Below are positions 843 to 59,909 of a stretch of DNA of 64,000 bases, piece by piece. The stretch covers positions 1,938-65,937 of the forward strand of contig DOYU01000010.1 of the NCBI GenBank assembly GCA_003518365.1, read 5' to 3'. The translations under genes and the position numbers were made by a program. Source of the stretch: Candidatus Magasanikiibacteriota bacterium (GTDB lineage Bacteria > Patescibacteriota > Patescibacteriia > Magasanikbacterales > UBA922). How positions within the stretch are numbered: position 1 is the stretch's first letter; every line of letters begins with the position of its first letter. Below the pieces are notes generated by a model. That model saw only the letters and a program-made list of their open reading frames with translations. It was not told where the DNA came from and searched no databases.

Positions 843-1052
843 GACTCGGGGGCGCTGCGGACGGGCTTTGAGCAGGTCTCGGGACCGGCTAAGTCTCCTT
901 GATTGGTTGGGGCATTCCTTTTTCCTCCGTGGGATCGAAATGTAGTGGCAGTTTACTTTATAAAACAGTTTTTAGTCAATACTAGGCATTTGACCCATAC
1001 ATCAAGTTGAAATGTGTCGCCTGGAGTGATAAGCTGTACACCATACGCATCT

Positions 1053-45016: not shown

Positions 45017-45682
45017 TCAGGAGATACTTTCTACTATATTTTCAAAAATTATATCCGCATTAAACAGATCTTGTTCTGTGATACATGTAGATTGCTGAGG
45101 TTCATCATAATTTGTACATTGCACTTCTCTGACAGAAAACTTCAATTCAAGTGGACCACCACCGTACTCAAATTCATACGTATATCGTGTATAGACACTT
45201 CCAGCGGCACCTTCTTCTTCACGAGTAATACAATATGTTTTTCCATTGACAGTTCGAAGCTCCGTAGGATCACTTCTTTCAAGACAAGGAACAAGGGCTT
45301 GCCCGATAGTCAACGTAGGTGGCCAATCAACAGGAGTGATATAAAGACTTCCAAAATCTGCCGGATACATGAAGGAAAGCCCTGTGTCAGTATCAAACTT
45401 GAACAAGAGAAGCGTTTCCTTTTCTGGAGAGTCCTTCACACTGTCAGGACATACGGCAAATGCACACTCTGGACCACTCCGACCAACGTATGTTGTGCCA
45501 TCAGGACAAAGCTTTGCCTCAAGCGTACACGCAACTTGATGATCTGTAGGATCTGTTTGTTCCCCCACTGCCGCTCCGTCATAATATGTTACCCACGCGA
45601 AATACAGTGCTGATGAAAGGACGAGAATGATAATAAGGATAAGCCAAAGGGCGGTATGTTTTGATTGCGATGGGATTTTCAT
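45017..45682 (-). CDS. hypothetical secreted/anchored protein (Cys-rich)
   Basis: N-terminal signal/anchor (ALWLILIIILVLSSALYFAW); several Cys pairs. Confidence 0.45.
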   Translation of the reverse strand: MKIPSQSKHTALWLILIIILVLSSALYFAWVTYYDGAAVGEQTDPTDHQVACTLEAKLCPDGTTYVGRSGPECAFAVCPDSVKDSPEKETLLLFKFDTDTGLSFMYPADFGSLYITPVDWPPTLTIGQALVPCLERSDPTELRTVNGKTYCITREEEGAAGSVYTRYTYEFEYGGGPLELKFSVREVQCTNYDEPQQSTCITEQDLFNADIIFENIVESIS

Positions 45683-45704: not shown

Positions 45705-45893
45705 CTATGCCGAATATACTTTCATACCAATCCAAATCCCTACTAATCCTCCTAAAAACGCACCAATAACAGAAGCAAAAGAAAAGGAATCTGCACCAAA
45801 CCAGACAGGAACATATGTACCAAGTGTAGATCCTACAATCATGCCAAGCATGACAATTTTTTTATCCATATATATCACTATAACACAAAACAC
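45705..45893 (-). CDS. hypothetical small membrane protein
   Basis: 62 aa, two hydrophobic helices. Confidence 0.35.
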   Translation of the reverse strand: MFCVIVIYMDKKIVMLGMIVGSTLGTYVPVWFGADSFSFASVIGAFLGGLVGIWIGMKVYSA

Positions 45894-46205
45894 AGCATAT
45901 TGCTGTGTTTTGTAGTGCTCGCCCTGCTCAACGATTTCCGAACTTTTGACTGGGCAAGCGAATACAAATATCCGACGGTAGTTTTAGACCAAATGAAAGA
46001 AATGCTGGCCAAGTACGCGAATGTATAACCCGTTCTTGCCCCATGTTTGCCCGTGTGGCGAGCGGTTCGAGCGAAGTAAGAGATTTGTACCAATCTGGAA
46101 ACCAAAAACGATTGTGAACGAATTTTGAGACTTTAAAACGATTTGCTTAACTTCGGAAAAGTTAAGCAAATATGACTCCGCTAGACTTGTTCCGACGGCA
46201 AGCGT

Positions 46206-46526
46206 ATGTTCTTGCTTGCTATGGATGACAATGACATTGAAGCGATCCTTCGGGACGCTAAAAACGTAAGAATGCCACATCGACGCGGATCATTTAATCC
46301 GTTATCTTCTCTTCCAGAACCAAAAGCCAAAATCAAACAAGCAATCAAGGAAAGAATCAGACTCTTGGCCGGTGCTTATATCTCACTGGCTGGATTTGTA
46401 GACGATGACGATATCCGGTTTGCCGAGGATAATCCAAAGTCAAAGAAAACTCGAGCAATGTATCACAAAGTGCTCGAGGATATGGAAATAGCAAAAAAAG
46501 AAATAAGGGAATTTAAAATATTATAG
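46206..46526 (+). CDS. hypothetical protein
   Basis: 106-aa ORF at the left edge of the accessory segment; no motif recognized. Confidence 0.35.
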   Translation: MFLLAMDDNDIEAILRDAKNVRMPHRRGSFNPLSSLPEPKAKIKQAIKERIRLLAGAYISLAGFVDDDDIRFAEDNPKSKKTRAMYHKVLEDMEIAKKEIREFKIL

Positions 46527-46699
46527 TAACTCTTCAAGCTCAACGGCATCGTCCTCGTCCACACCCAAATCTTCCATGATCTCCTGCACACGCTCGGCCG
46601 TGTCCTTATCAAGATCGTGACTTTCCATAAGCTCGACGACTTCTTTGTTTGGAGCTTCTTCGGCTGGTTCATCTTTAATTGGATCGTTATCGTCTACCA
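46520..46699 (-). CDS. small highly acidic protein (59 aa), last gene of the dcm/GHKL operon (frame absent from ORF track because <60 aa)
   Basis: Own six-frame read of 46520..46699: MVDDNDPIKDEPAEEAPNKEVVELMESHDLDKDTAERVQEIMEDLGVDEDDAVELEELL; about 40% Asp/Glu. The overlapping track ORF 46463..46672 is low complexity. Confidence 0.3.
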
Positions 46700-46714
46700 T
46701 AGCCCATATTTACT

Positions 46715-48388
46715 TTAGGCTTTCCCTGATAATAATGTGATAAGTCTGCCTTTAATATTTTCATAAACCGATGTTAGCTTCTTTTTCGCCGCATCAGTTA
46801 AAAGTGCTGTGTGAGCAAGAGAGTCTCGAATTGGCTTATACTCGTTTGCGTCTCTCGCAAGACAAGCCTCCTTAGTTGGATCTTTTGCTTTATCTACGAG
46901 GTATGCGAGATCATTCATGGATAAATAACTCAAATCACTATTATTTTTACGAATACCAATACTAACGTTGCCTTTATTTTTAGACTCTGTTTCTACTTTT
47001 TTCCATTTCGCAATTTCTGTTTTTGCTTCCTTTGACAGGGTTATTTTCTTTTCACCAATATAATTTCTGATTAAATTTTCTGACACAAAACATTCCGCAT
47101 AAGAACCAAAATTATATTGGGCATCATCAGCAAGATCATTAACCCACGTGTCAATTTTCTTTTTATGTTTTGATTTTCCTGCAACTGTGTATTCTTTGGA
47201 AACAGTGTTAAATAACTCCATTGATTTCCTATCTCGAGGGGTCATTCTCTCGTTTTCTGAATCGCCATCCTTCCTGTGGGCTATTCTCCATTTGTCCCAA
47301 TCTTCAACGATTTTTAATATCACACTTTTTCGCAGAGTATCTAGAAACTTTTTATATTTTGGATCATCGGCAACCACACCCTCTCGACTACTAGTAAATA
47401 TATCATCACCACTATCAAGTTCATTGAAGTGAATCTGCCCATACAAATAATTCTCAGCTACTCGAGATGTCGGTATGTGTTTTAGGATATCTCTTTCTCG
47501 CAATCTTCCGTTTACAAAAAGGTCAATTCCGATTCTTTCCTCAGTCGTCATTATTTTAAGATCTCTTGGTCGTTCAACTGACGCAATAAATCCTTTCATT
47601 TTATTTCCTTTAAGAACGATGTCTCTTTGCTCGTTTTTTTCTGTAGTAAATCTCTTCTCAAGACTTTGAATGTAAGGATCTTTATGTTCATTTATTTTCC
47701 ATAAAAACTCTGTTTTTTCAGCAAGATCATTGAGAGATTCGTGTGTGACTTTGTCGCCATCAATAAAAATATTAAATGTTTTATCTAAAAGTGAAAAACG
47801 AAAATATAAAGCAACAATCTTTTTCAAAAATTCTAAGCTATTTTGTATGCCGTCCTTGATGCCCTCAAAATAAATTATTGTGCCGTGTTTGTGATCTTTT
47901 GTATGGGTAGCAAAAGTGCTTTCTGTCCACGATCCAAGAGAATACTCCTTGGGAGTAAGATCTTCTGTTATTGCCTTGTCCAAACCCGAGTTATCAATGA
48001 CACCACCAATATAATTGCTGGATTTAGTTTTTGAGATAACAGTTATTTTTTCCGCACAAGATAACAAGGCTAATTTACCAATACCTTTTCTGCCTATAAA
48101 AGGTCTGCCCTTAGGGGAGGCGGAACCGCCATTTTTTCTCTTTGAGTATCCAATTTTCAAAAACTTATTTTGAAAATCATCCTTTGTCATACCCAAACCA
48201 TCATCCTTAATAAAAAAGCTATTACCTTTTTTATTGATATAGATTGAGACATTTTTTGCGTCAGCATCCCATGCGTTAGAGATTGCTTCTCCGAGAACCG
48301 TTGCAAAACTTCTGTACAGATTTCTTCCTAAGTGATTTAAGACGCTCAGTGAAATCTCAAAAGAGAAATTATCATTATTGTTTTTCAT
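46715..48388 (-). CDS. GHKL-superfamily ATPase (HATPase_c_3; MORC/paraMORC-like) associated with R-M genes
   Basis: Bergerat-fold motifs: N box EAISNAWDADA, G1 IKDDGLGMT, G2 GRKGIGKLA; overlaps dcm by 14 nt. Confidence 0.7.
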   Translation of the reverse strand: MKNNNDNFSFEISLSVLNHLGRNLYRSFATVLGEAISNAWDADAKNVSIYINKKGNSFFIKDDGLGMTKDDFQNKFLKIGYSKRKNGGSASPKGRPFIGRKGIGKLALLSCAEKITVISKTKSSNYIGGVIDNSGLDKAITEDLTPKEYSLGSWTESTFATHTKDHKHGTIIYFEGIKDGIQNSLEFLKKIVALYFRFSLLDKTFNIFIDGDKVTHESLNDLAEKTEFLWKINEHKDPYIQSLEKRFTTEKNEQRDIVLKGNKMKGFIASVERPRDLKIMTTEERIGIDLFVNGRLRERDILKHIPTSRVAENYLYGQIHFNELDSGDDIFTSSREGVVADDPKYKKFLDTLRKSVILKIVEDWDKWRIAHRKDGDSENERMTPRDRKSMELFNTVSKEYTVAGKSKHKKKIDTWVNDLADDAQYNFGSYAECFVSENLIRNYIGEKKITLSKEAKTEIAKWKKVETESKNKGNVSIGIRKNNSDLSYLSMNDLAYLVDKAKDPTKEACLARDANEYKPIRDSLAHTALLTDAAKKKLTSVYENIKGRLITLLSGKA

Positions 48389-49445
48389 AATATTTTAGGT
48401 GGTTCTTGATACTCTTGCCAATGACTGATCCCAGCCTTACTGGTACTGCATTTCCAATAAACTTCGCTACTTTAGTAACTACCATAGCGTCTTCAGACTC
48501 GGTAAATTTATAATTTTCAGGGAATGTTTGAAATATTGCGGCCTCCCTTAAACTTATAGCACGATTTTGTGTTGGGTGACCAAAACGACCATTCCCTAGA
48601 CCTATACATTGTGTGGTCATAGTCGGTGCTGGTTCATCCCATCTCATCCGACCGTATACGGTGCTTCGATAGGTCTTTCCGGAAGCCTTTTTGTGACAAG
48701 TAAGCATTAGATCTTCACTCCAGCTTTCTGAATTTCCACCATTGTGGGGAGTTGCCTTGATTCTCTCAAGATTTATTGGATCAAGTTTTCTTGCCTTATG
48801 GAGAGGGTCTTTTTTGCTCGTTTGACCATCTTTGATTGGTTCAAGGTGCCTGATGACATCACGAACAGTAACTCTTTTATCCTTGTGAGTTCTTTTTATC
48901 AATTCAATTTCACCAAACCTTGAAGCCAACAAAACTAATCGTTTTCGTTTTTGCGGTACGCCAAATTCTGAAACATCTACTACTTCATATTTATATTTAT
49001 ATCCATTATCCACCAGCGTCTTAATAAACTTAGCAAAAACGGGATATTTATTTGTGTCAGCTAAACCACTAACATTTTCCATTGAGACAATGTCTGGCTG
49101 AATAGCCGCGATAAGTTGAGCAAATTTGCCCAATGGCTCAAGTTGCTTTTCAGTAACTTTTTTTAAGTTTAATCTTGAAAATGGCTGACAAGGTGCGCAA
49201 CCAGCAAGAACACGAATCGTACCCTTTTTTGTTCCAAATAATTTATTAATTTGATCAGGCGTTACCTTGAGAATATCACTATCAATAAATTGAGTTTTGT
49301 TGTTGTACTCATAACCAAATTTACAGCTTGAATCGTTATCAATTCCTGCTACCACATCTAAACCCTCCTTGATAAGACCATGTGTAAGTCCACCAATGCC
49401 ACAAAATAGATCAACGACTTTAATTTTTGAGGATTGTGATTTCAT
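48375..49445 (-). CDS. dcm: DNA (cytosine-5)-methyltransferase
   Basis: Motif I DLFCGIGG, motif IV GCAPCQPFS (PCQ), motif VI ENV (SMENVSG). Confidence 0.85.
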   Translation of the reverse strand: MKSQSSKIKVVDLFCGIGGLTHGLIKEGLDVVAGIDNDSSCKFGYEYNNKTQFIDSDILKVTPDQINKLFGTKKGTIRVLAGCAPCQPFSRLNLKKVTEKQLEPLGKFAQLIAAIQPDIVSMENVSGLADTNKYPVFAKFIKTLVDNGYKYKYEVVDVSEFGVPQKRKRLVLLASRFGEIELIKRTHKDKRVTVRDVIRHLEPIKDGQTSKKDPLHKARKLDPINLERIKATPHNGGNSESWSEDLMLTCHKKASGKTYRSTVYGRMRWDEPAPTMTTQCIGLGNGRFGHPTQNRAISLREAAIFQTFPENYKFTESEDAMVVTKVAKFIGNAVPVRLGSVIGKSIKNHLKYYEKQ

Positions 49446-49467
49446 ACTAACAATAATTATATCAGTT

Positions 49468-49486
49468 TATCGAAAATTTTTCGATA
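49468..49486. promoter_or_regulatory. perfect 9-bp palindrome TATCGAAAA-t-TTTTCGATA upstream of dcm
   Basis: Located 23 nt upstream of the dcm start in the 105-nt gap between operons; candidate operator. Confidence 0.35.
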
Positions 49487-49550
49487 GCAAATCTTGCTTA
49501 TTTTTACTGAGTAAGTCCAGTACTTTCACTTTTAGGGTAATCTTGAGCTA

Positions 49551-51086
49551 TTATACCGTACTGTATAAAACGGAATTATTTTCAACGTGGGTTAAAAATT
49601 CCTCGATTGTTTTTGGCAAGATCGAAAGATTCTCTTTCTCCTTAACATAATTAATCTGCATTACAGAATCTTTGAATATGCTAGGGGCCACAAAGTAACA
49701 CATAGAATCCTTTGTACCTTTTTGGAATTGGCTCAAATGTCTTGAGATCGGCCACACTTCCATCATAGTTTGCATGCGTCCCTCCGACATTGTAACTTCG
49801 ACTAATATACCCTTAACATCCTCGAAACATTCAATGTCACCCTTATCTCCAACGCCTCCAGCTGTTGATGTTGGGAGACCTTCATCGTCGTAAGGATAGT
49901 TTGATACCACTCTAACATTTGGAAACTTGGATTTAATAGCCAAAGACACAAGAAACTCTAATCTGACAGGATTTGATAAGTATTTCAAAACATCATCTTT
50001 TGTTAATCTCTTCTTGGCCAAATTTAACATTTCATCTTTAATCCTGTTCCAAGGATAAATACCAACCCACTTAGCCAAAAAGGCGTCTCTCTCGCCGACA
50101 CTTACCGGCTTGGCAACAAACGAGATAAGATTTTCATCCACAGCCGACATATACTCAAAATATGATTCCTCTGTGGTGTATTTTTTATAATCAGAATAAG
50201 TTGCTAAAGCATAATCAACCTTAGTTTGTTCATTTCTGTTTATATCAATAAAACGACCAGCACCTCTTAATGAGATCAATCCTGTTAATCTCATTTTTCT
50301 AATAAACTCATCCGGATAGTCAACCATTATCGACTTCGGATTAAATTTCTTAAAATCACCGTCCATGATCTGGTTAACACAAATATCCACAATAACTTCC
50401 CAGCTCGGGGTATAGCCGTGTTCTTTTCTGATTTTCTTTATAAGTTTGTAAAGCTTCTCGGCGTCGTTATCTTTCCAGAAAATAACCAAGGGCAATTCTA
50501 ATTTTGAAATTCCGGTCCCGTTTAAATCCTTGTCAGCATTTATTTTATTAATCACACTCAGTAGTAAAATCAGCGGTGCATTTTCATTGAGTACTCGCCT
50601 GAATGGACTATTGCTTTGATATTTTACAAATGCATTCAGAAAAGCCTGTTGTTCAAATTCTGGGTGTTCGTTATCAACCAATTTTAATCCAATATCAGAA
50701 AATCTTATCTTTTCACCGTTTTTGTAATAAACAAAACCAAGCTCTTTGGCAATCTTAAACCAAGTATCAAACCGAGAAGCCCAGCCCTTACTAAAACCGG
50801 CTTCTTTATGATTTTGCGGATTATCCTCAAGAACCTTTTTCACTTCAGAATCAGACAACGGCTCTTTTGTTTCAATTTTATTCTTTACAACAGCACTTAT
50901 GTTAGTCGGCTTATATAGTCCGACCCGAATAACTTCACCGGAGATTTCTTCAGCCAACTGATCGTCAAGCACTTTTCCGTTGTAATCTTTAAGTACTCCC
51001 AAAAACCACTTAAGCCTTTCTGGGTTTCTAAGTGTAGTAGTAAATAATAATGGTTTATATTCTGATTCTCTTGTTTTTGTTTTCAT
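49551..51086 (-). CDS. hypothetical 511-aa protein; candidate restriction endonuclease partner of the two adjacent adenine methyltransferases
   Basis: No methyltransferase motifs; possible PD-(D/E)XK-like stretch GDKGDIECFEDVK near C-terminus; operon context with two alpha-class N6A methyltransferases. Confidence 0.4.
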   Translation of the reverse strand: MKTKTRESEYKPLLFTTTLRNPERLKWFLGVLKDYNGKVLDDQLAEEISGEVIRVGLYKPTNISAVVKNKIETKEPLSDSEVKKVLEDNPQNHKEAGFSKGWASRFDTWFKIAKELGFVYYKNGEKIRFSDIGLKLVDNEHPEFEQQAFLNAFVKYQSNSPFRRVLNENAPLILLLSVINKINADKDLNGTGISKLELPLVIFWKDNDAEKLYKLIKKIRKEHGYTPSWEVIVDICVNQIMDGDFKKFNPKSIMVDYPDEFIRKMRLTGLISLRGAGRFIDINRNEQTKVDYALATYSDYKKYTTEESYFEYMSAVDENLISFVAKPVSVGERDAFLAKWVGIYPWNRIKDEMLNLAKKRLTKDDVLKYLSNPVRLEFLVSLAIKSKFPNVRVVSNYPYDDEGLPTSTAGGVGDKGDIECFEDVKGILVEVTMSEGRMQTMMEVWPISRHLSQFQKGTKDSMCYFVAPSIFKDSVMQINYVKEKENLSILPKTIEEFLTHVENNSVLYSTV

Positions 51087-51090
51087 ATAT

Positions 51091-51996
51091 TTAATAATTG
51101 GTAATTAACACTTCCTTGATCTGTTTCTTACCGTTATTGTGATAGCTGATATAATTGCTTTCAATTTTGTGCGTCTTATATTTTTTCATCCAATCAATCA
51201 GTAAATCATTTTTACTTCCGTTATAATGGGTTACATTTGATAGGGCAAACTTTATACCCTTCTTATCCAAATCATCAATCATCCCCAGCAAGTCGGCTTC
51301 AGCTTTTTGATCCCACCGCTTGTTGTATTCGCTTGCTGTTATCAGATAGGGTGGATCTAAATAAACGAAATCATTCTTAGAATATTTCCGGTTTGCAAAA
51401 TAAGCTCTGAAGTCCTTTGAACTTAAAGTCATCTTCTTATCTTGCACAAAATCAAAATAACCATTCAGAGCGTTAACAACATTTTTATTAAAATCGACAT
51501 TGCCAACCGGTAAATTAAATTTACCACCACCATTAAACCTCAACATTCTATTAAAACCATAGATAAGTAGAATATACAGAATTAAAGGATCATTCTTTAT
51601 GTGTTTATTTACGCAAACTCTTAATTTTTCGTAGCCCTCTTTATTAAATTTGGCAAAATAGGTCTTTTTCCATTCTTTTTTTAACGAGACCGGAATTATA
51701 TCTTCTTTATAAGATCGTGATAGGTGATATTTCTTGATTATCTTTTCTACATTCTTAAAAAATAAAGTTGGGTTATTTGCACTATTAATTAAGAAACGAT
51801 GTATGTTGATTAAATTTTTATCGTTATCATTTAAGTAGTATTTATTTGCGTTAATATTTAAAAAGACAGTACCACCGCCGACAAATGGTTCGTAAAAATT
51901 GTCTACTTCCTGTGGAAATAAACCAGCCAGTTGCTTCATTAATTTGTATTTATCCCCGACATAAAATAGCGGGGATCTCTTAATTTTATTTTGCAT
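51091..51996 (-). CDS. Dam-family (D12-class, alpha) N6-adenine DNA methyltransferase
   Basis: Motif X YVGDKYKL, motif I EPFVGGGTVFLN, motif IV DPPY (VYLDPPYLIT). Confidence 0.8.
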   Translation of the reverse strand: MQNKIKRSPLFYVGDKYKLMKQLAGLFPQEVDNFYEPFVGGGTVFLNINANKYYLNDNDKNLINIHRFLINSANNPTLFFKNVEKIIKKYHLSRSYKEDIIPVSLKKEWKKTYFAKFNKEGYEKLRVCVNKHIKNDPLILYILLIYGFNRMLRFNGGGKFNLPVGNVDFNKNVVNALNGYFDFVQDKKMTLSSKDFRAYFANRKYSKNDFVYLDPPYLITASEYNKRWDQKAEADLLGMIDDLDKKGIKFALSNVTHYNGSKNDLLIDWMKKYKTHKIESNYISYHNNGKKQIKEVLITNY

Positions 51997-53803
51997 GGTT
52001 TACGGTGGTTACAAATAAATACTCTTTATGGTTTTTGAAATCGGTATTGCCAGCGTTGAAATGCCTGTAGTCTTTTTCAAAGACTTTAGTTTTTCCCTTT
52101 GCCGATAAAATATCCTTGATCTCTTGTAGAGTAATTTTATTTTTTGATGAATTGCTTTTTGAATCGTAAGTATTATTGTAAGACACGACTAAATACTTGG
52201 CATTCAAATCTTTTACTAATTCGGCAAGCCTGTCTTTTGCTTGAACACGGCAATAATCGCTCATATTTTCCTCCTGAGGCTTCAGGGCGGTCCCAAACAA
52301 CTCTGGCTTATCCCATTTCGTTAAAGTTTCTAGGACATGGTAGAAACGACTATACTGCCTCGAGTTATAGGGTGGATCAATATAAACAATGTCAGCTTTA
52401 ATTTTTTTAGCTAAGAGGTTCGTATCTTCTTTATAAATTGTGACATTTTTTACTTCAATCGGATCAATAGGTCTCATAAAAAATCCGTCTTCGACATGTT
52501 CTTTTTTGAAATATGCATCATAGTGACCAACTGTATTGGCAACCTTATCGATTGAATACAATAACGAAGCAATAAGAATATAATATTCTTTATCCGACAG
52601 GTTCTTTCTGTTTTCCTCTATAGTTTCTCTAATGAACCCTATTATTTTGGCTGAGTTGTGGCTAAAATACTTACCGCCAAAATTAGTAGAAAAATAATTA
52701 TTCTCTAAATCACCACCGTCAATGTTGTTGTAGTCTTTGATAATATTTTCAATCTTGTTTTTATCCCATTCTCCATTGCCAAAAAAGGCTTGATAAATTG
52801 CATAGTTAGAATGTAAAAAATCGTTAAGAATGATTTCATCATAGTGTCTGGCCGCAACAGCCGAAACCACTCCGGTCCCAGCAAAAATATCAGCGAAAGA
52901 GTTGCCTTTTTCGCACTCCTTATTAATTACGGAAAATATCCATTCAATAAGTTTGTGCTTACTGCCAATATATCGGCGGTTTTGTAATTGTAAATAATTC
53001 TTTTTTACCTGTGGAATATAAAAATAATTCTCCTGTACTTTTTCGGCACTTATTTCGTAAGCTGGTTTTTCAAGCTCTAAAAGAGCAAACAAAGTTCCTT
53101 GTACACCGTCAGCTACATAGTCATAACTCTTTTTATCTTTGCTTAATTTTTCAAAAAAGCTACAGCTTCCGTTCTCCGCTGTGATAATAAAATCAATAAC
53201 AGCAATGCCCATTATCTCTCCAGCTTGGGATATTTTTTGTACCACCTCAATATCTCTTGTACTGGGAGATGAATCTCCGGAGGGGTGATTATGAACTAAT
53301 ATGATACTAGCGGAGTTAAGTTCTACTGCTGGATGAAAAATTTCTCTGGGATGTATTAAGCTTTTATCTAGCAAACCTACACTAATAATTTCTTTCTTTA
53401 TCAAAACATTTCTGGCGTTAAGATAAAGACACACTAAATATTCCTTTTTCTTGTCTCGTAGATCGTATGTTAAAGATAAAACATCCTGTTGGTTTTTTAT
53501 GATAGTGTCGCCACCTTTTTCTTCATCATAAAATCTTTTTACTAATGAAATGGCAGAAATAATTTGTAAGGCCTTGGCTTGCCCAATACCAGAAACCTCT
53601 AATAGGTCTTCAACTTTAATATTTAAAAAATTCTTGCCAAATTTCTTAATAATCTGTTCTGATAGCTGTTTAACATTTTTGCCTTTAATCCCACTACCCA
53701 GAAGAATCGCCAAAAGATCACTCTTTGAAAGTGCTTCTGATCCTTTTTTAAGGAACCTCTCTCGAGGACGATCTATTTTGGGGATGTCTTTTATTTTTGG
53801 CAT
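51986..53803 (-). CDS. fusion: RadC-like JAB/MPN domain (N) + alpha-class N6-adenine DNA methyltransferase (C)
   Basis: RadC signature HNHPSGDSSPSTRD preceded by an HhH-like region; then YIGSKHKL (motif X), DIFAGTGVVS (motif I), VYIDPPYNS (motif IV). Confidence 0.75.
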   Translation of the reverse strand: MPKIKDIPKIDRPRERFLKKGSEALSKSDLLAILLGSGIKGKNVKQLSEQIIKKFGKNFLNIKVEDLLEVSGIGQAKALQIISAISLVKRFYDEEKGGDTIIKNQQDVLSLTYDLRDKKKEYLVCLYLNARNVLIKKEIISVGLLDKSLIHPREIFHPAVELNSASIILVHNHPSGDSSPSTRDIEVVQKISQAGEIMGIAVIDFIITAENGSCSFFEKLSKDKKSYDYVADGVQGTLFALLELEKPAYEISAEKVQENYFYIPQVKKNYLQLQNRRYIGSKHKLIEWIFSVINKECEKGNSFADIFAGTGVVSAVAARHYDEIILNDFLHSNYAIYQAFFGNGEWDKNKIENIIKDYNNIDGGDLENNYFSTNFGGKYFSHNSAKIIGFIRETIEENRKNLSDKEYYILIASLLYSIDKVANTVGHYDAYFKKEHVEDGFFMRPIDPIEVKNVTIYKEDTNLLAKKIKADIVYIDPPYNSRQYSRFYHVLETLTKWDKPELFGTALKPQEENMSDYCRVQAKDRLAELVKDLNAKYLVVSYNNTYDSKSNSSKNKITLQEIKDILSAKGKTKVFEKDYRHFNAGNTDFKNHKEYLFVTTVNHAK

Positions 53804-53806
53804 ATT

Positions 53807-54055
53807 TTAATTCTTCTTTTTGGTTTTAATATTACTTGTCTCATCCAAAAAAGCATTGAGATCAGATTGCTTGATACGCCAAACACCAAGCTTGGATGCC
53901 TTTAACCTGCCCGACTCGATATATCGGGTGACAGTGCGTGTATGAACTCTTAAAATTTTGGCGATTTCTTCTATTGTGAAAAGTTTTTCAATTTCGTTCA
54001 TAAGAATTATATTAGTCGTTGATATCATTTTACCTCTTCTGCTTTTCATTGTCAA
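53807..54055 (-). CDS. excisionase-family HTH DNA-binding protein (Xis/AlpA/MerR-like)
   Basis: LFTIEEIAKILRVHTRTVTRYIESGRLKASKLGVWRIKQSDLNAFL matches the excisionase-family HTH pattern. Confidence 0.6.
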   Translation of the reverse strand: MTMKSRRGKMISTTNIILMNEIEKLFTIEEIAKILRVHTRTVTRYIESGRLKASKLGVWRIKQSDLNAFLDETSNIKTKKKN

Positions 54056-54174
54056 AATCGCCGTATTTTGTCATAATACACTTGTGGGGTTGAGTAATCA
54101 GATATTACCGACTCAATCCCTATATCCAAAAATTAGTGAATGGCTGGCATAAAATGGGTCCCATTCACTAAAAA

Positions 54175-54909
54175 ATGAACTGGGAAGTAAGGATTAGGCT
54201 TGCATCCAGTAAAAACATGACTATGAAAATGAAAAAGGCCTCAAAGACCACAAAATACAAATTCAACATAAAGAAAATTGTCTCTAAGTCAATGACTTAC
54301 CGTTTTTCTCTCGGAATAGTTAAAGATGTTGTAAAAAATGCTCTGGAAAATTCCGGTATCAAAAATTCGGATGATATTATAAAGAGGCACGAGGACGAGA
54401 TCGTAGAGCTAAAAGATAGGCTAAACAAAACAGACACTAAATTTGAAAGCTATAAAAAAGAGACTAACAAAACAATTGCCGAATTAAAAGATGAACTGGG
54501 AAAAGTTAGTAAACAGAACCTGACTCAGATCGGCCGAGAAATGGCTATCGGTTTTTATGAACAGAGCCAAAAGATACGGTCCAAACAGAAAGAAAAGAAA
54601 ACTAAAGAAACTTTGCTCTGCCTCTCCTCAGACGGCGATCTATACCTAGCGTCCAATCAACAAAAATGTTATCCGATGAGTAAAGAGAAAATGCGTGAGA
54701 AATTGATAAAAGTTTTATGCTCGGCCAAAGGTTATATCAAGACGGCCGAGTTGGCTGAAATGGTCGGCACGACCAATCAAGCGATTAGAAATTCCAAGCT
54801 GGAGATAAATAATAAATCTAAAAATCGGATTGGCATTGATAAACTGATTATCGGCCGTGACGGCAATGGCTATCGCTTAAATCCAGAATATAAAATCAAA
54901 ATACTATAG
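54175..54909 (+). CDS. hypothetical coiled-coil protein with possible C-terminal winged-helix
   Basis: 244-aa ORF divergent from the Xis-like gene; followed by terminator. Confidence 0.4.
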   Translation: MNWEVRIRLASSKNMTMKMKKASKTTKYKFNIKKIVSKSMTYRFSLGIVKDVVKNALENSGIKNSDDIIKRHEDEIVELKDRLNKTDTKFESYKKETNKTIAELKDELGKVSKQNLTQIGREMAIGFYEQSQKIRSKQKEKKTKETLLCLSSDGDLYLASNQQKCYPMSKEKMREKLIKVLCSAKGYIKTAELAEMVGTTNQAIRNSKLEINNKSKNRIGIDKLIIGRDGNGYRLNPEYKIKIL

Positions 54910-54942
54910 CGTAATAGTCGGTGTAGTTAATAACTTCAATGA

Positions 54943-54970
54943 GAGAGCCTGAAATAGGGCTCTTTTTTGT
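54943..54970 (+). terminator. rho-independent terminator (agagcc-tgaaata-gggctct + T-run)
   Basis: Hairpin followed by tttttt. Confidence 0.55.
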
Positions 54971-55055
54971 TGCCCAACTACACCTGGGCATTATTCCAAG
55001 AGATGGGCAACGATTGGCAAACTATAAATGTGTGAGAGTAAAAAAATGAAATGAT

Positions 55056-55307
55056 ATGCCAATCAAACAAAGTGAGAGTTTCAAGACCGCCGATCTGGCA
55101 TTGATCGCGGTGCTTTTATTATTAATGCCCGAATCTCTTGAGGTCGTGGATCGGACAAATCCGCATAAGGTCCTCTTTGGATTTAAAACTGACCGCAAGC
55201 TCGAAAAGCTTATGGACAGTTTTTGGAAACGAGAGCTTGTGGTCGAACCTCAAGCGTTCTTTAACCAAATCAAAATCGCCAAAGCCAGGATCTATGTCCA
55301 CGAATAA
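55056..55307 (+). CDS. hypothetical protein (island cargo)
   Basis: 83-aa ORF in GC-richer segment. Confidence 0.35.
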   Translation: MPIKQSESFKTADLALIAVLLLLMPESLEVVDRTNPHKVLFGFKTDRKLEKLMDSFWKRELVVEPQAFFNQIKIAKARIYVHE

Positions 55308-55309
55308 AT

Positions 55310-55519
55310 ATGAAGTTAAAACCGGAAACGCTGGAAAAACTCCGAGCGATTCTCAAAAAAGACTTTGGCCAAGAAGTGAATGATCAAGACCTCCACGATA
55401 TCGCATTCAATCTCGTGAGTTATTACGACGCTCTGTCGCGATTCTACTGGGAGGATATCACGAGCGGTCGAAAGCTTATAGAACCATATGACACAGTACC
55501 CGAGCGACAAACCACATAA
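55310..55519 (+). CDS. hypothetical protein (island cargo)
   Basis: 69-aa ORF directly following the previous one. Confidence 0.3.
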   Translation: MKLKPETLEKLRAILKKDFGQEVNDQDLHDIAFNLVSYYDALSRFYWEDITSGRKLIEPYDTVPERQTT

Positions 55520-56060
55520 GATCAGAGATTATCGCGAATTGCCGTTTGCTTACCAAGATAAGCCAGCTTTGCGGTACATGCGACAACAATGGCTCGATAA
55601 GCACATTAGCATTGATGCCTACCGGAATCTCCGGAACATGTATCTGGCTTTGACTGAGATTGCCTCCAACAAAGCCAGTCAAACCATAGAGGCGTCCAAC
55701 AAAACGCTTTTGATTTATTCCGGACTCAAAGACTGGCGAACGATTAAGAATTGTTTGTCCAAGCTCGAGGAGTGGGCTTTTATCGCGATCACAAAAACTC
55801 GGGGCGAGGATGCAAAGTTCAAGCCCCGAGGTATCACTTTGCTGTCCGTCCTACATCTGACGCAGGGTGGAAACCAATCAGCATCAAAAGCCGGACGGCA
55901 TAGCACGCAGACTGCCTCCGGTGCAGAAGATATAGAAGGTAATGGATTAAAAGAAATTAAAGAAAATAATAAAGAAATTAACGGCCGGTCCAAGAATTTA
56001 AAACTCTTGGCCGAGGCGAGAGCCAAACTCGTAGCTAAGATGACCCTACAAAACAAATGA
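55488..56060 (+). CDS. hypothetical protein, possible DNA-binding/replication-related (island cargo)
   Basis: 190-aa ORF; basic N-terminal half; no firm motif. Confidence 0.35.
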   Translation: MTQYPSDKPHKIRDYRELPFAYQDKPALRYMRQQWLDKHISIDAYRNLRNMYLALTEIASNKASQTIEASNKTLLIYSGLKDWRTIKNCLSKLEEWAFIAITKTRGEDAKFKPRGITLLSVLHLTQGGNQSASKAGRHSTQTASGAEDIEGNGLKEIKENNKEINGRSKNLKLLAEARAKLVAKMTLQNK

Positions 56061-56148
56061 TTTTCGGTTATAAACGGCAACATTTGGCAACGAAATGAGC
56101 AAAAAACCGATAATAAATAATCATTAAACGATACTAAATGATACCTAA

Positions 56149-56622
56149 ATGGCTAAATCTGTAGACATAAAAAATGAAAAATATCAGAATGCGATCCGCT
56201 TAAAATATGGCGATTTTACTTATTTAGAGATTGCCCGGATGCTTAAAGTTTCTCATGTCAGTGTAAAGAGATGGTTTCGGTCAGACGGCTTACTGAAAGA
56301 CGAATACGACCGATATGAAAAAGAAAGAAACCGTGTACGCGACAAAGAGACTGATACTGTGCTGGCGAGACATTCTGTAATTGCGGCCAATATTCTGGTC
56401 TCGCTTATGGGTGCCAAAAGCGATGTCATGAAATTCAGAGCTGTTAAAGCCATTTTGGATTATGTACTGGGTCCAGTAAGAACCATGGGCAGTGACGATC
56501 CTTACGATAACGCCGATTATCGGCGAGATAGCGACAGTATTGCGAGAATACTGGAAAGTGCTAGGAAAAGACAACAAAAATCCACTGTGGGCAACTCGAG
56601 CTTAGCTTGTCCGAAAAAATAG
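56149..56622 (+). CDS. HTH-domain protein (possible phage terminase small subunit-like or regulator)
   Basis: N-terminal HTH-like YLEIARMLKVSHVSVKRW. Confidence 0.35.
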   Translation: MAKSVDIKNEKYQNAIRLKYGDFTYLEIARMLKVSHVSVKRWFRSDGLLKDEYDRYEKERNRVRDKETDTVLARHSVIAANILVSLMGAKSDVMKFRAVKAILDYVLGPVRTMGSDDPYDNADYRRDSDSIARILESARKRQQKSTVGNSSLACPKK

Positions 56623-56681
56623 CGTATGTTGTGTCTTGAGACCAAAAGTCGAATTCGAACCTTAGTAAAATTAACAAAATT

Positions 56682-58469
56682 ATGACTATGACAATGCAAA
56701 ACGAAAATGAATCGATGCGAGCCGTAGGATATGCCCGTGTCTCCTCCAAGGATCAAGAGGACACTGGATACTCACTACCGGCTCAAGAAAAACTTCTACA
56801 CGATTATGCCGACAGAAACGGTTTTGATCTGGTAAAAGTTTTTGCTATTCAAGAATCGGCGGCCGGAAAAATCCAACGAAAGATATTCCACGAGATGTTG
56901 GACTATGTGACCAAAGCCAAGATCAATACGATCTTCGTGGAAACCACCGACCGTTTAACCCGTAACTTCGCTGATGTGCCGATAATTGACGAATGGATAC
57001 TGGCGGATGAAAAGCACACCATTCATCTGGTAAAAGAAGGCTGTACCTTACACAAAGACTCCAAGTCCCACGAATGGTTTATGTGGCGAGTCAAAGTGGC
57101 TACGGCCGAATATTATATCCGACTCCTTTCCGAGAATGTGAAAAAGGGGCAGAAAGAAAAATTGGCTCAAGGCTGGCTACCAAGCAAACCGCCACTGGGA
57201 TACCAGACCACTGGCGAGAAAGGACACAAAATCCATATCATTGATCCGGACAAATCGCCACTGGTCAAAAAGATGTTTGACCTTTACGCCTCCAATCGCT
57301 ACTCAACCAAAAAGCTGGCCGATGAAATGCATAAGCTTGGCATGCGGTCTCGAGGAGGAAATAAAGTCAGTCATTCAAGAGTCCACCAACTACTGGGCGA
57401 TCCGTTTTATTATGGAATGAATCGCTGGAACGGCAAAGTCGCTCAAGGCGGACACGAACCGCTGATAACCAAAGAATTATTCATGCGATGCCAAGACATA
57501 ATGCATAGCAACGGTACGCCGAAATACAACAAGCACAATCCGTTATTTAAAAATGTCTTCCACTGTGAGGAATGCAAAGGCCGGATAACTTGGGAGATAC
57601 AAAAAGGCCACTGGTATGGCCACTGCAACCATTATAAAAACTGCCAGCAAAAGGAATGGGTCAAACAAGAGAACATTGACCTGCAAGTAATGGAAAATAT
57701 CGAGCATTTAAGCTCAAAGCACAACGAGGCCATAGAGAATATGCTCACTTGGGTCCAAGAGGCACTCAAAGAAAGCCACGGCGAGGAGATAGAATTCCGA
57801 CAAAAGGCCACTGGCGAACTTGAGCGACGCTACCAAGTCGCCACGCAAAGACTGGATAAGATATACGATGACAAGATAGACGGCAAGATCAGCGAGGACT
57901 TCTACCAGAAAAAGTACCAGCAGTACAAAATTGAACAAGAGGAAGTGTTGGACGGACTGAATAAGCACAAAAATGCCAACCTCAAGTATTACGATATGGG
58001 GTCAACCTTTTTACAAATGGCCAAAGAGGCAAGGAGAATTTATTTGAACCGAAGCACGATTGAAATGGTCGACGACAAGAAACAACTTTTGTCCCTTTTA
58101 TTTTCGAACCCTATAATAAATGGCAAGAAAGTTGAGATTTCATACCAGAAAGCCTTCAAAATGGTATTTGAACGAGTATCACAGATGTTGGGAGAAAATA
58201 CAGACGAAAATACAACATTCGAACCGCTGAAAAAGCCCGTAGATAAAGAGAAAAGCAGAGCTTTTGGCTCTGCTCATCCCATATGGCTCGACGGGTGGGA
58301 CTCGAACCCACGACCAATTGGTTACACGTCATCCACAATTTTCATTGCGGCGTGGACTATATCATCACCCTCGCCTATTTCCGATCATGTCGGAATCGTT
58401 AGGGTGCGAAGCGCTTCCCCTGCATCAAATATGTTCGAACAAGGTACTCCCCGAAGGGATAGTCTCTGA
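56682..58469 (+). CDS. large serine recombinase (resolvase/invertase N-domain + recombinase domain + zinc ribbon)
   Basis: Catalytic Ser region GYARVSSKDQ; zinc ribbon CEECKGR...HCNHYKNC; the last ~60 codons are antisense to the tRNA-Asn 3' exon and intron. Confidence 0.8.
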   Translation: MTMTMQNENESMRAVGYARVSSKDQEDTGYSLPAQEKLLHDYADRNGFDLVKVFAIQESAAGKIQRKIFHEMLDYVTKAKINTIFVETTDRLTRNFADVPIIDEWILADEKHTIHLVKEGCTLHKDSKSHEWFMWRVKVATAEYYIRLLSENVKKGQKEKLAQGWLPSKPPLGYQTTGEKGHKIHIIDPDKSPLVKKMFDLYASNRYSTKKLADEMHKLGMRSRGGNKVSHSRVHQLLGDPFYYGMNRWNGKVAQGGHEPLITKELFMRCQDIMHSNGTPKYNKHNPLFKNVFHCEECKGRITWEIQKGHWYGHCNHYKNCQQKEWVKQENIDLQVMENIEHLSSKHNEAIENMLTWVQEALKESHGEEIEFRQKATGELERRYQVATQRLDKIYDDKIDGKISEDFYQKKYQQYKIEQEEVLDGLNKHKNANLKYYDMGSTFLQMAKEARRIYLNRSTIEMVDDKKQLLSLLFSNPIINGKKVEISYQKAFKMVFERVSQMLGENTDENTTFEPLKKPVDKEKSRAFGSAHPIWLDGWDSNPRPIGYTSSTIFIAAWTISSPSPISDHVGIVRVRSASPASNMFEQGTPRRDSL

Positions 58470-58713
58470 ACCTTTTTCCATGTATGGACGCACATACGTT
58501 TCTCTCTCAAGGAGAGTGCTCTTATGCACACCTATATAATCATACCTGAAAACTTGGCTGCGAATTGCCATACAGATCCACAAGGGATCTGCGAAGGGTT
58601 CTCGCAATTCACTTCGTTGGCATCCTTCTGTTTCTAGAAGGAGCTGCTAGTGCGCCTAGATTGCTCTATACGTCTATTTACAGCCAACTGCTCTACCGCT
58701 GAGCTACCGTCGA
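58284..58713 (-). tRNA. tRNA-Asn(GTT) interrupted by a group I intron in the anticodon loop (exons 58680..58713 and 58284..58324)
   Basis: 5' exon TCGACGGTAGCTCAGCGGTAGAGCAGTTGGCTGT; 3' exon TAACCAATTGGTCGTGGGTTCGAGTCCCACCCGTCGAGCCA; acceptor, D, anticodon and T stems pair; spliced anticodon loop CUGUUAA. Confidence 0.7.
58325..58679 (-). ncRNA. group I self-splicing intron (355 nt) within tRNA-Asn
   Basis: Conserved group I core R element GTTCAGAGACTA (plus 58460..58471) and S element GATATAGTCC (plus 58354..58363) forming P7; 5' exon ends in U, intron ends in G; internal guide GCAGCU can pair with exon end GGCUGU. Confidence 0.7.
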
Positions 58714-58769
58714 ATATGTTGTAATCGAGCATAGTGTACTCGACTTGTGTGAGCCTGTAAAGACTCTTG

Positions 58770-58840
58770 TTCGGGGACAGGGATTCGAACCCCGATAGTC
58801 AGGATCAAAACCTGAAGTCCTACCTTTAGACGATCCCCGA
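58770..58840 (-). tRNA. tRNA-Gln(TTG)
   Basis: Cloverleaf: acceptor TCGGGGA/TCCCCGA, anticodon loop TTTTGAT, T-loop TTCGAAT; 71 nt, no encoded CCA. Confidence 0.75.
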
Positions 58841-59000
58841 ATGTTTGATTATATTGGCTTTTTCTTCTCTCCCAAAGCCAGTCTTTACATACAATTCACT
58901 TCTTCAAAAGAAACGAATTTTTCACTGTGAATTATTCGTAAAGGCCGAAATACCTTTGTAGATTTTGTTTTTCCAGATTGATGATCCTTGAAACGCTGCG

Positions 59001-59909
59001 TCAAGTCTTCAAATAACGACGCATTGCAATCATACTGGATATCAAGGTGAGAAAAAAGACAATTCCAAACTGGATACCAGCGAGTGAGAGTATATGCGAA
59101 AAATAGTAATTTGTCAAGAATTTTGGATCTCCTAAAATTACCCCCAAATATGGGTCAAGTATCCCCGTTGCACCGTATACCAAAAGAACGGCTATCCCTA
59201 CGCTTAGGATACTAAAGAGAATAGACTCAACAATATAGGGTCCTTGGACAAACCAGTTGGTTGCTCCCACGAGTTTTTTGATACTGATTTCAATACGCTG
59301 TGTATAAATTGCGACGCGAATCGTATTAAAAATGATGAGAAATGCAATAATGGCAAAAAAAGCAGTAAGAGCAAACGAAAAATGCTCTACATTTTTTGTA
59401 ATGACATCAATTTTTTGAATTGCGCCCTGAGTATCCGTAAATGTCTTTGATTCAACAATAGTTTCATATTCCGGCACACTCAGATCATCAATAACCGTCA
59501 CATAATCTGCAGGGTCCTTTGTTTTTACAACAATAGTTGCACCAAGTGGATTCTCCGCGAGCTCTTCAAGAGAGGCTAAAATATTTTCATTATCCTTGTA
59601 CAGATTTTTAAAATTTTGTAACACTTCATCCTGAGATAAAAAGGTAGCGTGAGTGACTTGTGGAAGTGATGCAATGTATGTGTACACTTCATCTATTTCA
59701 TCAGCAGTTGCCTCAGGTGAAAGATAAATACTTACATCTATCTGCTCACGAATAGACGTTGTTGCCTCATTGGTCACGAGCCTGATAAAGAGGAGCGTAT
59801 TGACCGACAACAACATCAAAACAAGTACAAAAATTGTCATAAAAGACAATCCTATATTTCGTACAATATCTTGCAATGCAAAGCTAACAATGCGTAAAAA
59901 AGAATACAT
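59001..59909 (-). CDS. ftsX: cell division permease FtsX
   Basis: Four-TM topology with large periplasmic loop; adjacent to ftsE. Confidence 0.8.
   Translation of the reverse strand: MYSFLRIVSFALQDIVRNIGLSFMTIFVLVLMLLSVNTLLFIRLVTNEATTSIREQIDVSIYLSPEATADEIDEVYTYIASLPQVTHATFLSQDEVLQNFKNLYKDNENILASLEELAENPLGATIVVKTKDPADYVTVIDDLSVPEYETIVESKTFTDTQGAIQKIDVITKNVEHFSFALTAFFAIIAFLIIFNTIRVAIYTQRIEISIKKLVGATNWFVQGPYIVESILFSILSVGIAVLLVYGATGILDPYLGVILGDPKFLTNYYFSHILSLAGIQFGIVFFLTLISSMIAMRRYLKT

Follow-up and report, generated by a model that had tools for sequence, protein, structure and literature searches.

Canonical phage serine integrases, such as those of phiC31, Bxb1, A118 and TP901-1, are known to act on protein-coding or intergenic targets, with attP outside the int open reading frame (ORF). 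Targeting of tRNA genes by serine integrases was stated to be 'not known' by PMC4383910, and PMC7192596, which gives 14 of 297 computational candidates that await proof, called it 'not reported previously' in 2020; among tycheposons, 910 of 937 elements have tyrosine recombinases and 27 have a large serine recombinase (LSR; bioRxiv 10.1101/2020.12.28.424599). We found no prior description of serine recombinases of the Candidate Phyla Radiation (CPR) at tRNA genes in the open-access literature, a search that was incomplete and leaves absence unproven. An attP that swaps the tail of its own recombinase is known for a few tyrosine integrases and is hardly documented for serine integrases. Here we analyze a stretch of 64,000 nt from a Candidatus Magasanikiibacteriota bacterium (contig DOYU01000010.1), referred to as the window, in which an LSR gene runs antisense into a tRNA-Asn gene. 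We interpret this locus as a single 12.4-kb integrative element that its LSR inserted at the acceptor-stem/discriminator end of tRNA-Asn, with attP inside the 3' end of the recombinase gene, and we estimate the probability of this reading at roughly 0.88. The restriction–modification (R-M) systems on board are ordinary and the intron of the target gene belongs to a published class; new is the tRNA-Asn-specific LSR island with attP in the recombinase gene.

Boundaries of the insertion and the empty site

We scanned a genome collection with the neighbouring FtsX protein and obtained Magasanikbacteria relatives, among them one (L006) whose FtsX is 87% identical to that of the window and which is colinear with it on both sides without the block. 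Its gene order is FtsX, tRNA-Gln, an intron-containing tRNA-Asn, a hairpin, a small membrane ORF and a homologue of the window gene 45017-45682. By blastn, L006 9045-9649 aligns with window 58843-58286 and L006 9645-9850 with window 45921-45729; the two aligned segments overlap by 5 nt, and the flanks are colinear at 74-86% identity. Since the segments meet at 58286 and 45921, 12,369 bp (window 45917-58285) are missing from L006, and the junctions share only GCTCG. The locus thus shows a presence/absence polymorphism with precise boundaries. An initial annotation, made from the sequence alone, had proposed an integrated element or defence island here, which agrees with the absence of the block from L006 and with its two R-M systems. 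The same annotation had looked for the left boundary in a 310-bp stretch, 45894..46205, and the boundary does fall inside it (45917-45921); however, the block does not start at 46206, and the stretch is not non-coding as supposed but holds a severed 36-codon recombinase 3' end (45918-46028).

The left core copy GCTCG, the attL crossover region, lies at 45917..45921 (+) according to the blastn overlap with L006 and the sequence itself, and the right copy, the attR crossover region, at 58286..58290 (+), which corresponds to tRNA positions 70-74 in antisense. In an independent relative (L020) the junctions share TGGCTC, again with no long repeats, so that the core common to both loci is GCTC, corresponding to tRNA positions 71-74; the 2-bp crossover would lie within it. 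A search for direct repeats of the tRNA-Asn 3' end, which the initial annotation had recommended, gave none of at least 14 nt between 44 and 59.5 kb, and only the 5-bp core GCTCG is repeated, contrary to what is expected of a tyrosine-type island. A terminator-like hairpin, AAAACACAGCA-N-TGCTGTGTTTT, at 45887..45911 (-) aligns with the hairpin that directly follows tRNA-Asn in L006; this hairpin belongs to the host, forms the B' arm of attB and has been displaced from the tRNA by 12.4 kb. From these parts we reconstructed attP as …CATATGGCTCGCCCTGCTCAACG… and attB as …GTTTTGTAGTGCTCGACGGGTGGG…, with the junction sequences CATCCCATATGGCTCGCCCTGCTCAACGATTTCC and GCTGTGTTTTGTAGTGCTCGACGGGTGGGACTCG, respectively. 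A crossover at CTCA / TGAG was rejected: it gives an out-of-frame product of 537 aa without tail homology and is contradicted by natural junctions in two relatives (L088 and L076).

The recombinase gene and its split 3' end

The LSR ORF (56682-58469, +) encodes 595 aa with Resolvase and Recombinase domains (Pfam). Residues 1-536, ending in ...HPIWL, are encoded by the element (56682..58289, +), with the last ~30 codons forming the P arm, while residues 537-595 form a read-through tail encoded by the host (58290..58469, +). This confirms the earlier observation that the ORF runs antisense into tRNA-Asn: codons 537-595 lie opposite the 3' exon and 142 intron nucleotides. Immediately within the left junction, the plus strand holds an open frame without a start codon. 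When 58286 is joined to 45918, the recombinase ORF continues through this frame for 36 codons (…HPIW-LALLNDFRTFDWASEYKYPTVVLDQMKEMLAKYANV*) to a total of 571 aa, so that 45918..46028 (+), comprising LALLNDFRTFDWASEYKYPTVVLDQMKEMLAKYANV and its stop, is the orphan recombinase 3' end, or P' arm.

By its domains the enzyme is a serine recombinase. The Resolvase catalytic domain with its nucleophilic serine is present (PF00239, E 3e-23, residues 14-164); the motif YARVSSKDQ is present, and the family alignment shows almost no variation at R19, V20, S21 and S22. The Recombinase domain follows (PF07508, E 3e-18, residues 189-276), and the cysteines C295, C298, C315 and C321 of a putative zinc ribbon are invariant or nearly so. 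PF13408 was recorded for many homologues and stays below threshold for the window protein. In the AlphaFold2 (AF2) model, a helix at 130-162 is followed by a mixed domain, and long helices, candidates for an inserted coiled coil, span 329-455. The protein also matches PHROG integrases (E 7e-74), and neither frameshifts nor lost catalytic residues were seen in the window copy.

A search with the 571-aa form returned 1818 homologues at E<1e-20, which belong to Patescibacteria wherever the source is named. All of them are conserved up to the HPIWL motif and then diverge into classes: (i) peptides such as RGWDSNPRP, RDLDSNQEP and PREDSNLEP, which are translated antisense tRNA T-arms; (ii) a stop within 2-3 codons after HPIWL; (iii) 'unsplit' tails with the motif W-D-x-F-R-T-x-x-W…P…Q-x-K-x-L-L, which the orphan tail of the window fits. 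At colinear C-terminal positions, the orphan 36 aa find counterparts in at least 15 of the unsplit tails (best E 8e-7 in a database of 120 sequences); for the read-through tail, the only matches are further tails of the antisense-tRNA kind. Among the top 120 homologues, about 40% have an antisense-T-arm peptide (xDSNxxP) as their C-terminus. The read-through measures 59 codons in the window and 2-13 codons in relatives at intron-less tRNA-Asn genes; the length in the window is due to the group I intron of the tRNA gene, which has no stop in that frame. The peptide itself is probably a by-product.

The same joint occurs naturally. In two relatives, L088 and L076, the P arm is the same and runs on into a tail with 97% and 86% identity, respectively, to the orphan tail of the window, and in L088 a homologue of the 106-aa gene that follows the orphan tail in the window comes next (91.5% identity). 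The cluster of recombinases at ≥90% identity has 61 members with at least 7 different sequences after HPIWL. Among these members, P0130 has an uninterrupted tail like that of the window; its 22.6-kb contig (L022, ERZ27237538:k141_1880942) matches the circularised window element colinearly through the junction and on into a homologue of the 106-aa gene. Judged from the in-frame reconstruction, the tail homology and these contiguous natural junctions, attP lies inside the recombinase ORF, and integration alters the encoded protein. In the AF2 model of the unsplit P0130, residues 506-535 have a predicted local distance difference test (pLDDT) score below 50, and residues 537-569 form short helices with pLDDT 72-79. 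A disordered linker of this kind would tolerate sequence change, so that its DNA could double as P arm and as replacement terminator for the tRNA.

Junctions in relatives and target specificity

The exact 23-nt P arm, GCTCTGCTCATCCCATATGGCTC, was found on 65 metagenome contigs, with 51 different sequences right after TGGCTC. These comprise 18 distinct intron-less tRNA-Asn genes, 9 tRNA 3' halves with intron-like sequence, 3 tRNA-Gln genes, 1 T-arm fragment, 10 unsplit tails and 10 others; tRNA-Asn alleles thus number about 28. A break at one nucleotide position in so many contexts is a signature of site-specific recombination. L020, in which the recombinase is 64% identical, serves as an independent replicate: the ORF reads into an intron-less tRNA-Asn, and an orphan tail 59% identical to that of the window (E 2e-12) lies 10 kb away on the same strand, beside a host-type hairpin. 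All six integrated loci that we examined (the window, L017 with an intron, L019, L020, L023 and L024) occupy tRNA-Asn(GTT), their recombinases ranging between 52% and 100% identity, and the family is thus specific for tRNA-Asn. The initial annotation had taken the overlap as the mark of an attachment site. The recombinase-into-tRNA geometry indeed recurs in every integrated relative examined; the geometry is, however, typical of tyrosine and not of serine integrases. We also considered whether the xDSNxxP tails stand for different tRNA species, which was mostly rejected: they reflect different tRNA-Asn alleles and a few tRNA-Gln. In three loci (L040, L049 and L061) the identical P arm is joined to tRNA-Gln (TTG or CTG), which makes tRNA-Gln an occasional secondary target. 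The tRNA-Gln of L040, the only junction worked through among the three, ends in ...GAGCCA like the tRNA-Asn targets.

An identical recombinase protein is found on groundwater metagenome contigs from the Rifle aquifer and in the metagenome-assembled genome GCA_003488405.1, whose annotation is Candidatus Magasanikbacteria (Patescibacteria/CPR). In two assemblies made independently from the same population, contigs break close to the features described here, one (L004) ending 356 nt upstream of the recombinase and the other (L005) inside the tRNA-Asn intron. These breaks at the recombinase and tRNA edges may reflect strain heterogeneity in the Rifle samples, either with and without the element or with other cargo.

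The target tRNA gene, its intron and the terminators

The target is an intron-interrupted tRNA-Asn(GTT) gene at 58284..58713 (-). ARAGORN called only tRNA-Gln and tRNA-Thr in the window and left the tRNA-Asn uncalled. Rfam reports a group I intron (RF00028) at 58333-58725(-) with 77.9 bits and the full model covered. We placed the exons by eye and checked them by script; exons 58713-58680 and 58324-58284 splice to a tRNA-Asn(GTT) that ARAGORN accepts. The intron (58325-58679, 355 nt) sits between anticodon positions 35 and 36, and the exon junction GGCTGT|TAACC yields the anticodon GTT. The same gene with an intron is present in L006, L007, L011 and L017. Group I introns at 35/36 of Patescibacteria tRNA-Asn and tRNA-Asp, missed by standard tRNA finders, have been described by Nakagawa et al. 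2026 (PMC13011429), with in vitro self-splicing of homologous introns. The window intron agrees with these in gene, insertion position, phylum and escape from ARAGORN and is itself no different, and is therefore already known; that paper makes no mention of recombinases or integrated elements at intron-bearing tRNA genes. The intron was rejected as a part of the target, because relatives integrate equally at intron-less tRNA-Asn genes, and it is thus incidental to integration. The tRNA-Asn intron of L006 (9176-9650) is 86% identical to that of the window, yet remains below the Rfam gathering score, apparently owing to an extra ~50-nt insertion in a peripheral helix; such tRNA introns can escape Rfam as well as tRNA finders.

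A terminator-like hairpin with a T-run is located at 58253..58275 (-), 9 nt past the tRNA-Asn 3' end and antisense within recombinase codons ~524-532. A terminator scan on the tRNA strand gave 9 pairs followed by TTCTCTTTAT at 58275-58253. L019, L020 and the distant L013 also have the embedded hairpin, with stems of other sequence. At the window locus, the tRNA gene gained an encoded CCA by integration: it reads GAGC|CA, as against GAGC|AT in L006, where CCA is not encoded. In antisense, the conserved W-L codons TGG CTC read GAGCCA, which is the 3' end of the four tRNA-Asn genes read at recombinase junctions (window, L017, L019 and L020).

Backbone, cargo and a possible composite origin

All items of gene content that had been named for the block (an excisionase-like helix-turn-helix (HTH) protein, a serine recombinase, three methyltransferases, a GHKL protein and an endonuclease) are confirmed by Pfam and PADLOC. 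The cargo amounts to two predicted type II R-M systems. The first consists of an AlwI-family type IIS endonuclease (RE_AlwI; 49551..51086, -; PF09491, E 2e-42; PADLOC REase_II PDLC03507, E 1e-127), 98% identical to its copy in L017, beside two PF02086 methylases, a composition that identifies it by sequence as an AlwI-type IIS system with two putative m6A methylases. Of these, M2 (51091..51996, -) is a D12-class N6-adenine methyltransferase (PF02086; PADLOC MTase_II, E 2e-106), and M1 (51986..53803, -; 605 aa) combines a RadC-like JAB domain with a D12-class N6-adenine methyltransferase (PF20582, PF04002 and PF02086; PADLOC MTase_II, E 7e-133). The N-terminal part of M1 is a fused UPF0758/RadC-like JAB domain, and the same fusion is found in L017 at 98% identity. 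In the second system, a C5 cytosine DNA methyltransferase (48375..49445, -; PF00145, E 1e-57; PADLOC MTase_II, E 7e-88) is paired with a GHKL (HATPase_c_3) protein (46715..48388, -; PF13589, E 9e-22; PADLOC REase_II PDLC03419, E 6e-44). Over residues 6-395 the GHKL protein resembles PADLOC 'REase_II' models; its C-terminal part showed no nuclease domain, and the protein is the probable restriction endonuclease partner of the m5C methylase.

An HTH_17 excisionase/MerR-like DNA-binding protein (53807..54055, -; PF12728, E 1e-15; PHROG excisionase families) heads the cargo operon, divergent from the backbone, and holds the same position in L012, L017, L019, L020 and L024; it is a candidate regulator or directionality factor. 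The backbone continues with a 244-aa protein (54175..54909, +; positional homologues of 24-37% identity in L012, L017, L019 and L075), a DUF5659 protein (55056..55307, +; PF18903; conserved in L012, L017, L019, L022, L023 and L024), a 69-aa protein (55310..55519, +; copies 51-98% identical in L012, L017, L019, L020 and L022), a 190-aa protein without family match (55488..56060, +; copies 73-89% identical in L012, L017, L019 and L022) and a 157-aa HTH protein (56149..56622, +) with Sigma70_r4_2 below threshold and a weak terminase-small-subunit or DNA-binding similarity (PHROG 2538, E 8e-7). At the other end, a 106-aa protein to which no function was assigned (46206..46526, +; no Pfam, PHROG or PADLOC match) always lies directly downstream of the recombinase tail; homologues follow the unsplit tail directly in L022 (73%) and in L088. 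A 59-aa acidic protein (46521..46700, -), called as a gene in public assemblies, has a weak homologue in L066.

The relatives show the same layout, with HTH_17 and, divergently, a ~220-aa protein, DUF5659, the 69-aa protein, a ~190-aa protein, the HTH protein and the recombinase, and the variable cargo site lies between HTH_17 and the tail end. This site contains the same AlwI R-M system plus SIR2/DUF87 in L017; RhuM, an N6_N4 methylase, ResIII and SMC in L012; an N6_N4 methylase and ResIII in L019 and L020, the latter also with ThsB-TIR; a HinfI R-M system in L024; and Dcm, HATPase, Vsr and HsdR together with an IS256-family transposase in L022. As the cargo differs between relatives, the element can be regarded as a defence-gene shuttle.

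The GC content is 0.34-0.36 in the R-M cargo, 0.41 in the backbone, 0.44 in the recombinase and 0.41 in the host, and the segment that had been described as visibly GC-richer than the R-M genes is so. From this difference a mosaic of at least two acquisitions had been suggested, and in its strongest form the suggestion would make the locus a composite, in which an AT-rich R-M island and a separate recombinase element inserted independently and accreted beside the tRNA. Besides the 6-10 points of GC between cargo and backbone, the comparison with L017 speaks for such an origin, as the AlwI cassette and HTH_17 are 96-98% identical and the recombinase and backbone only 77-79%; true arrays at tRNA-Asn also exist elsewhere (L046, L077 and L088/L050), and L020 carries a second scar at 890-961. 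However, the halves of a single recombinase gene enclose all 12,369 bp, the window has one recombinase and one orphan tail, a tblastn search of the whole window with the tails revealed no scar of a P arm or tail inside the block, and all relatives share the layout with cargo between HTH_17 and the tail end. Modules with different histories are thus real, but they entered as one integrated unit and not as two insertions; module exchange in the element lineage before integration explains the differing histories better, and we consider independent insertions improbable.

A phage origin is less probable still. The locus would then be a prophage or phage satellite with a phage integrase and small regulatory or packaging genes, for which one can cite the PHROG matches to integrases and excisionases, the weak small-terminase match of the 157-aa protein (E 8e-7) and a distant relative, P0047, whose surroundings are phage-like, with Phage_rep_O and a pair of M78 peptidase and repressor. 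Neither virion structural nor packaging genes support it: Pfam and PHROG show no capsid, portal, large terminase, tail or lysis genes in the 12.4 kb, IMG/VR contains no relatives, and R-M cargo makes up more than half of the element; a satellite lifestyle retains a small probability.

The least probable reading, an old immobile island with a decaying recombinase remnant whose tRNA overlap is an accident of a missing stop, can point to 59 host-encoded codons without homologues except antisense-tRNA read-throughs, to a read-through length set merely by the first stop and to a circular form that was not found, and is correct in so far as the peptide is probably a by-product, but it is opposed by an ORF intact to the junction and >96% identical to copies in many other contexts, an identical 23-nt P arm joined to ~31 different tRNA genes and the absence of the island from L006.

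Neighbouring genes and distant relatives

The left flank of the element is a glycosyltransferase/VTT/small-membrane-protein cluster, and the right flank contains tRNA-Asn, tRNA-Gln, FtsX and FtsE. The tRNA-Gln(TTG) at 58769..58840 (-; ARAGORN and Rfam) is a host neighbour outside the element. Between it and FtsX lies a decayed GIY-YIG gene remnant (58841-59006, -), frameshifted and interrupted by stops, which is 88% identical at the DNA level to L007 9061-9466, where an 82-aa GIY-YIG gene is intact. Ahead of the L007 gene stands a perfect 37-nt copy of the 5' part of tRNA-Gln; this points to another mobile insertion, unrelated to the element, next door at tRNA-Gln.

In the P0030 context (L013), a member of the family that is 50% identical and has an unsplit tail is located between MTase/PLD genes and a Gabija-like pair formed by an OLD-family ATPase and a UvrD helicase. 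The same contig encodes a protein with a Por secretion tail, and the family may therefore extend beyond Patescibacteria.

Tandem arrays at tRNA-Asn

Several relatives occur in tandem. On a 957-kb contig, L088 is a 149-aa recombinase remnant located 17.7 kb from a second, tRNA-joined copy, and in L046 and L077 a tRNA-Asn follows 1.7-9 kb past the unsplit tail. In these arrays the reading frame of an upstream recombinase, or of its remnant, runs on into the tail of the following element, and that element ends at the tRNA. L088 and L050 lie at ~655.2 kb and ~672.9 kb of contig Ga0265297_10000005, and the two recombinases of L046 are only 30% identical. L020 contains a second orphan tail of another type (WLCVVEDVRTVIQEHQGCICIPSV, like P0015/P0018) at 890-961 (+), ~600 nt outside its left end, which looks like the scar of an earlier element at the same tRNA-Asn. 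We had considered L022 and L088 as free attP forms and rejected this, as L088 is chromosomal with its remnant 17.7 kb from the tRNA-Asn copy; for this reason, the unsplit junctions are taken as proof of the junction sequence and not of excision.

Tandem arrays would need recombination with a hybrid site, or homologous recombination. One tentative explanation, which we hold to be possible but rather unlikely, is that this LSR family recognizes its target mainly via the tRNA half-site and re-integrates at an occupied tRNA-Asn by an attP x attR-type reaction, which is one that canonical serine integrases avoid. Heterologous arrays would then accumulate, and the P' arm of each newcomer would re-tail the resident recombinase in frame; the identical P arm fused to 10 different conserved-type tails and the arrays L046, L077 and L088/L050 fit this idea. 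The tail swap may have a regulatory meaning, in that losing or regaining the helical tail of 36 aa might determine directionality or activity. If it is such a switch, the full-length enzyme would be competent for integration, the integrated form without the tail would be silenced or would need a directionality factor, and self-limitation would result from gene geometry with no separate regulator.

Discussion

Our data suggest the following course of integration. The attP lies within the recombinase gene 3' end, in the stretch encoding the predicted disordered linker, and shares with attB only GCTC(G), antisense to tRNA positions ~71-74. Integration would keep tRNA positions 1-~72, with the element supplying the last bases, here creating an encoded CCA. 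The element would also bring a new terminator hairpin, antisense in recombinase codons, and the original terminator of the host would be shifted 12.4 kb away. At the same time the last 36 codons of the recombinase, a small helical tail that unsplit relatives conserve, are cut off and left at the far left end of the island, and the truncated gene reads into whatever lies antisense of the tRNA, here for 59 codons. The element itself combines a conserved backbone with exchangeable defence cargo, in this case the two type II R-M systems. It is presumably competent for excision and able to move between cells.

Some observations weigh against a mobile element of this kind. The empty site comes from a different species-level relative and another population. 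No excised circular form carrying attP was detected: none of the full-length contigs has terminal overlaps, the exact 571-aa unsplit protein is absent from a collection of 15 billion proteins, a scan of IMG/VR with the unsplit protein gave no relatives, and the contiguous P|P' junctions with visible context sit in chromosomal tandem arrays (L088/L050, L046 and L077). PHROG and Pfam show no conjugation, virion or packaging genes in the element, save the weak small-terminase-like match. No dyad symmetry is obvious in the reconstructed attP or attB, which were inspected by eye only. The closest relative, L012, with a 96% identical recombinase, has TGGCTCG followed by non-tRNA sequence; at L012 11600-11700 there is a tail GVWDTIGTDL…, then a 361-aa gene and a tRNA-Gln(CTG).

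The family, which is large, active and mostly patescibacterial, forms a clear exception to the textbook rule that serine integrases avoid tRNA genes, with tRNA-Asn and occasionally tRNA-Gln as targets at a fixed nucleotide. Should the single integrative element be correct, a stretch of ~60 bp would do three jobs, as linker in the protein, half-site of attP and antisense terminator of the target tRNA. Integration would edit the C-terminus of the enzyme itself, in convergence with the tyrosine integrases of Mx8 and SSV, and would provide a natural test of the role of the LSR tail. In ultra-small symbiotic bacteria, in which few mobile elements are recognised, the family would act as a compact shuttle for R-M, SIR2/HerA, Thoeris-like and type III-like defence modules. 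The many natural attP/attB pairs and the conserved universal target could be of use for mining integrase tools and for genetic access to uncultivated CPR bacteria, and the antisense-tRNA peptide signature …PIWLxxxDSN… offers a simple marker for such islands.

Comparison with known systems

Among described systems, the IntP/IntX pair of phage Mx8, as far as the account of Tojo et al. 1996 in PMC4383910 goes, is similar in that attP lies in the 3' part of the integrase ORF and integration into a tRNA gene swaps the integrase C-terminus for host-encoded residues. According to the same account, however, Mx8 Int is a tyrosine recombinase with a tRNA-Asp target, whereas the window has an LSR, a core of 4-6 bp and a displaced tail of 36 aa. 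The 'suicidal' integrases of the SSV type (PMC7253208, PMC8371274) likewise have att inside the ORF, and their gene is split at a tRNA so that the halves flank the element; unlike the window enzyme, they are tyrosine integrases of archaeal viruses and plasmids, and the split in mid-gene destroys the enzyme. In the window, the split removes only the C-terminal module past the disordered linker and leaves the catalytic and recombinase domains and the putative zinc-ribbon and coiled-coil regions intact. As the window enzyme is a serine recombinase without the tyrosine recombinase catalytic fold, the element works like the Mx8 and SSV-type systems but is not a member of them.

With phiC31, Bxb1, A118 and TP901-1 the family shares the order of Resolvase and Recombinase domains, followed by what is probably a Cys-rich zinc ribbon with a long helical insertion, and a very short identity between the reconstructed attP and attB with no long flanking repeats; it differs from these canonical LSRs in an extra C-terminal region of ~130 aa with the embedded att site. 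The islands of tyrosine integrases (Islander/TIGER; tycheposons) resemble the window element in their insertion at tRNA 3' ends with restoration of the tRNA, in the adjacent integrase gene, in their modular and often defensive cargo and in their tandem arrays at the same tRNA. These islands, however, leave a repeat of a 15-50-nt tRNA fragment, whereas the window element leaves only GCTC(G) and displaces the tail of its own recombinase instead.

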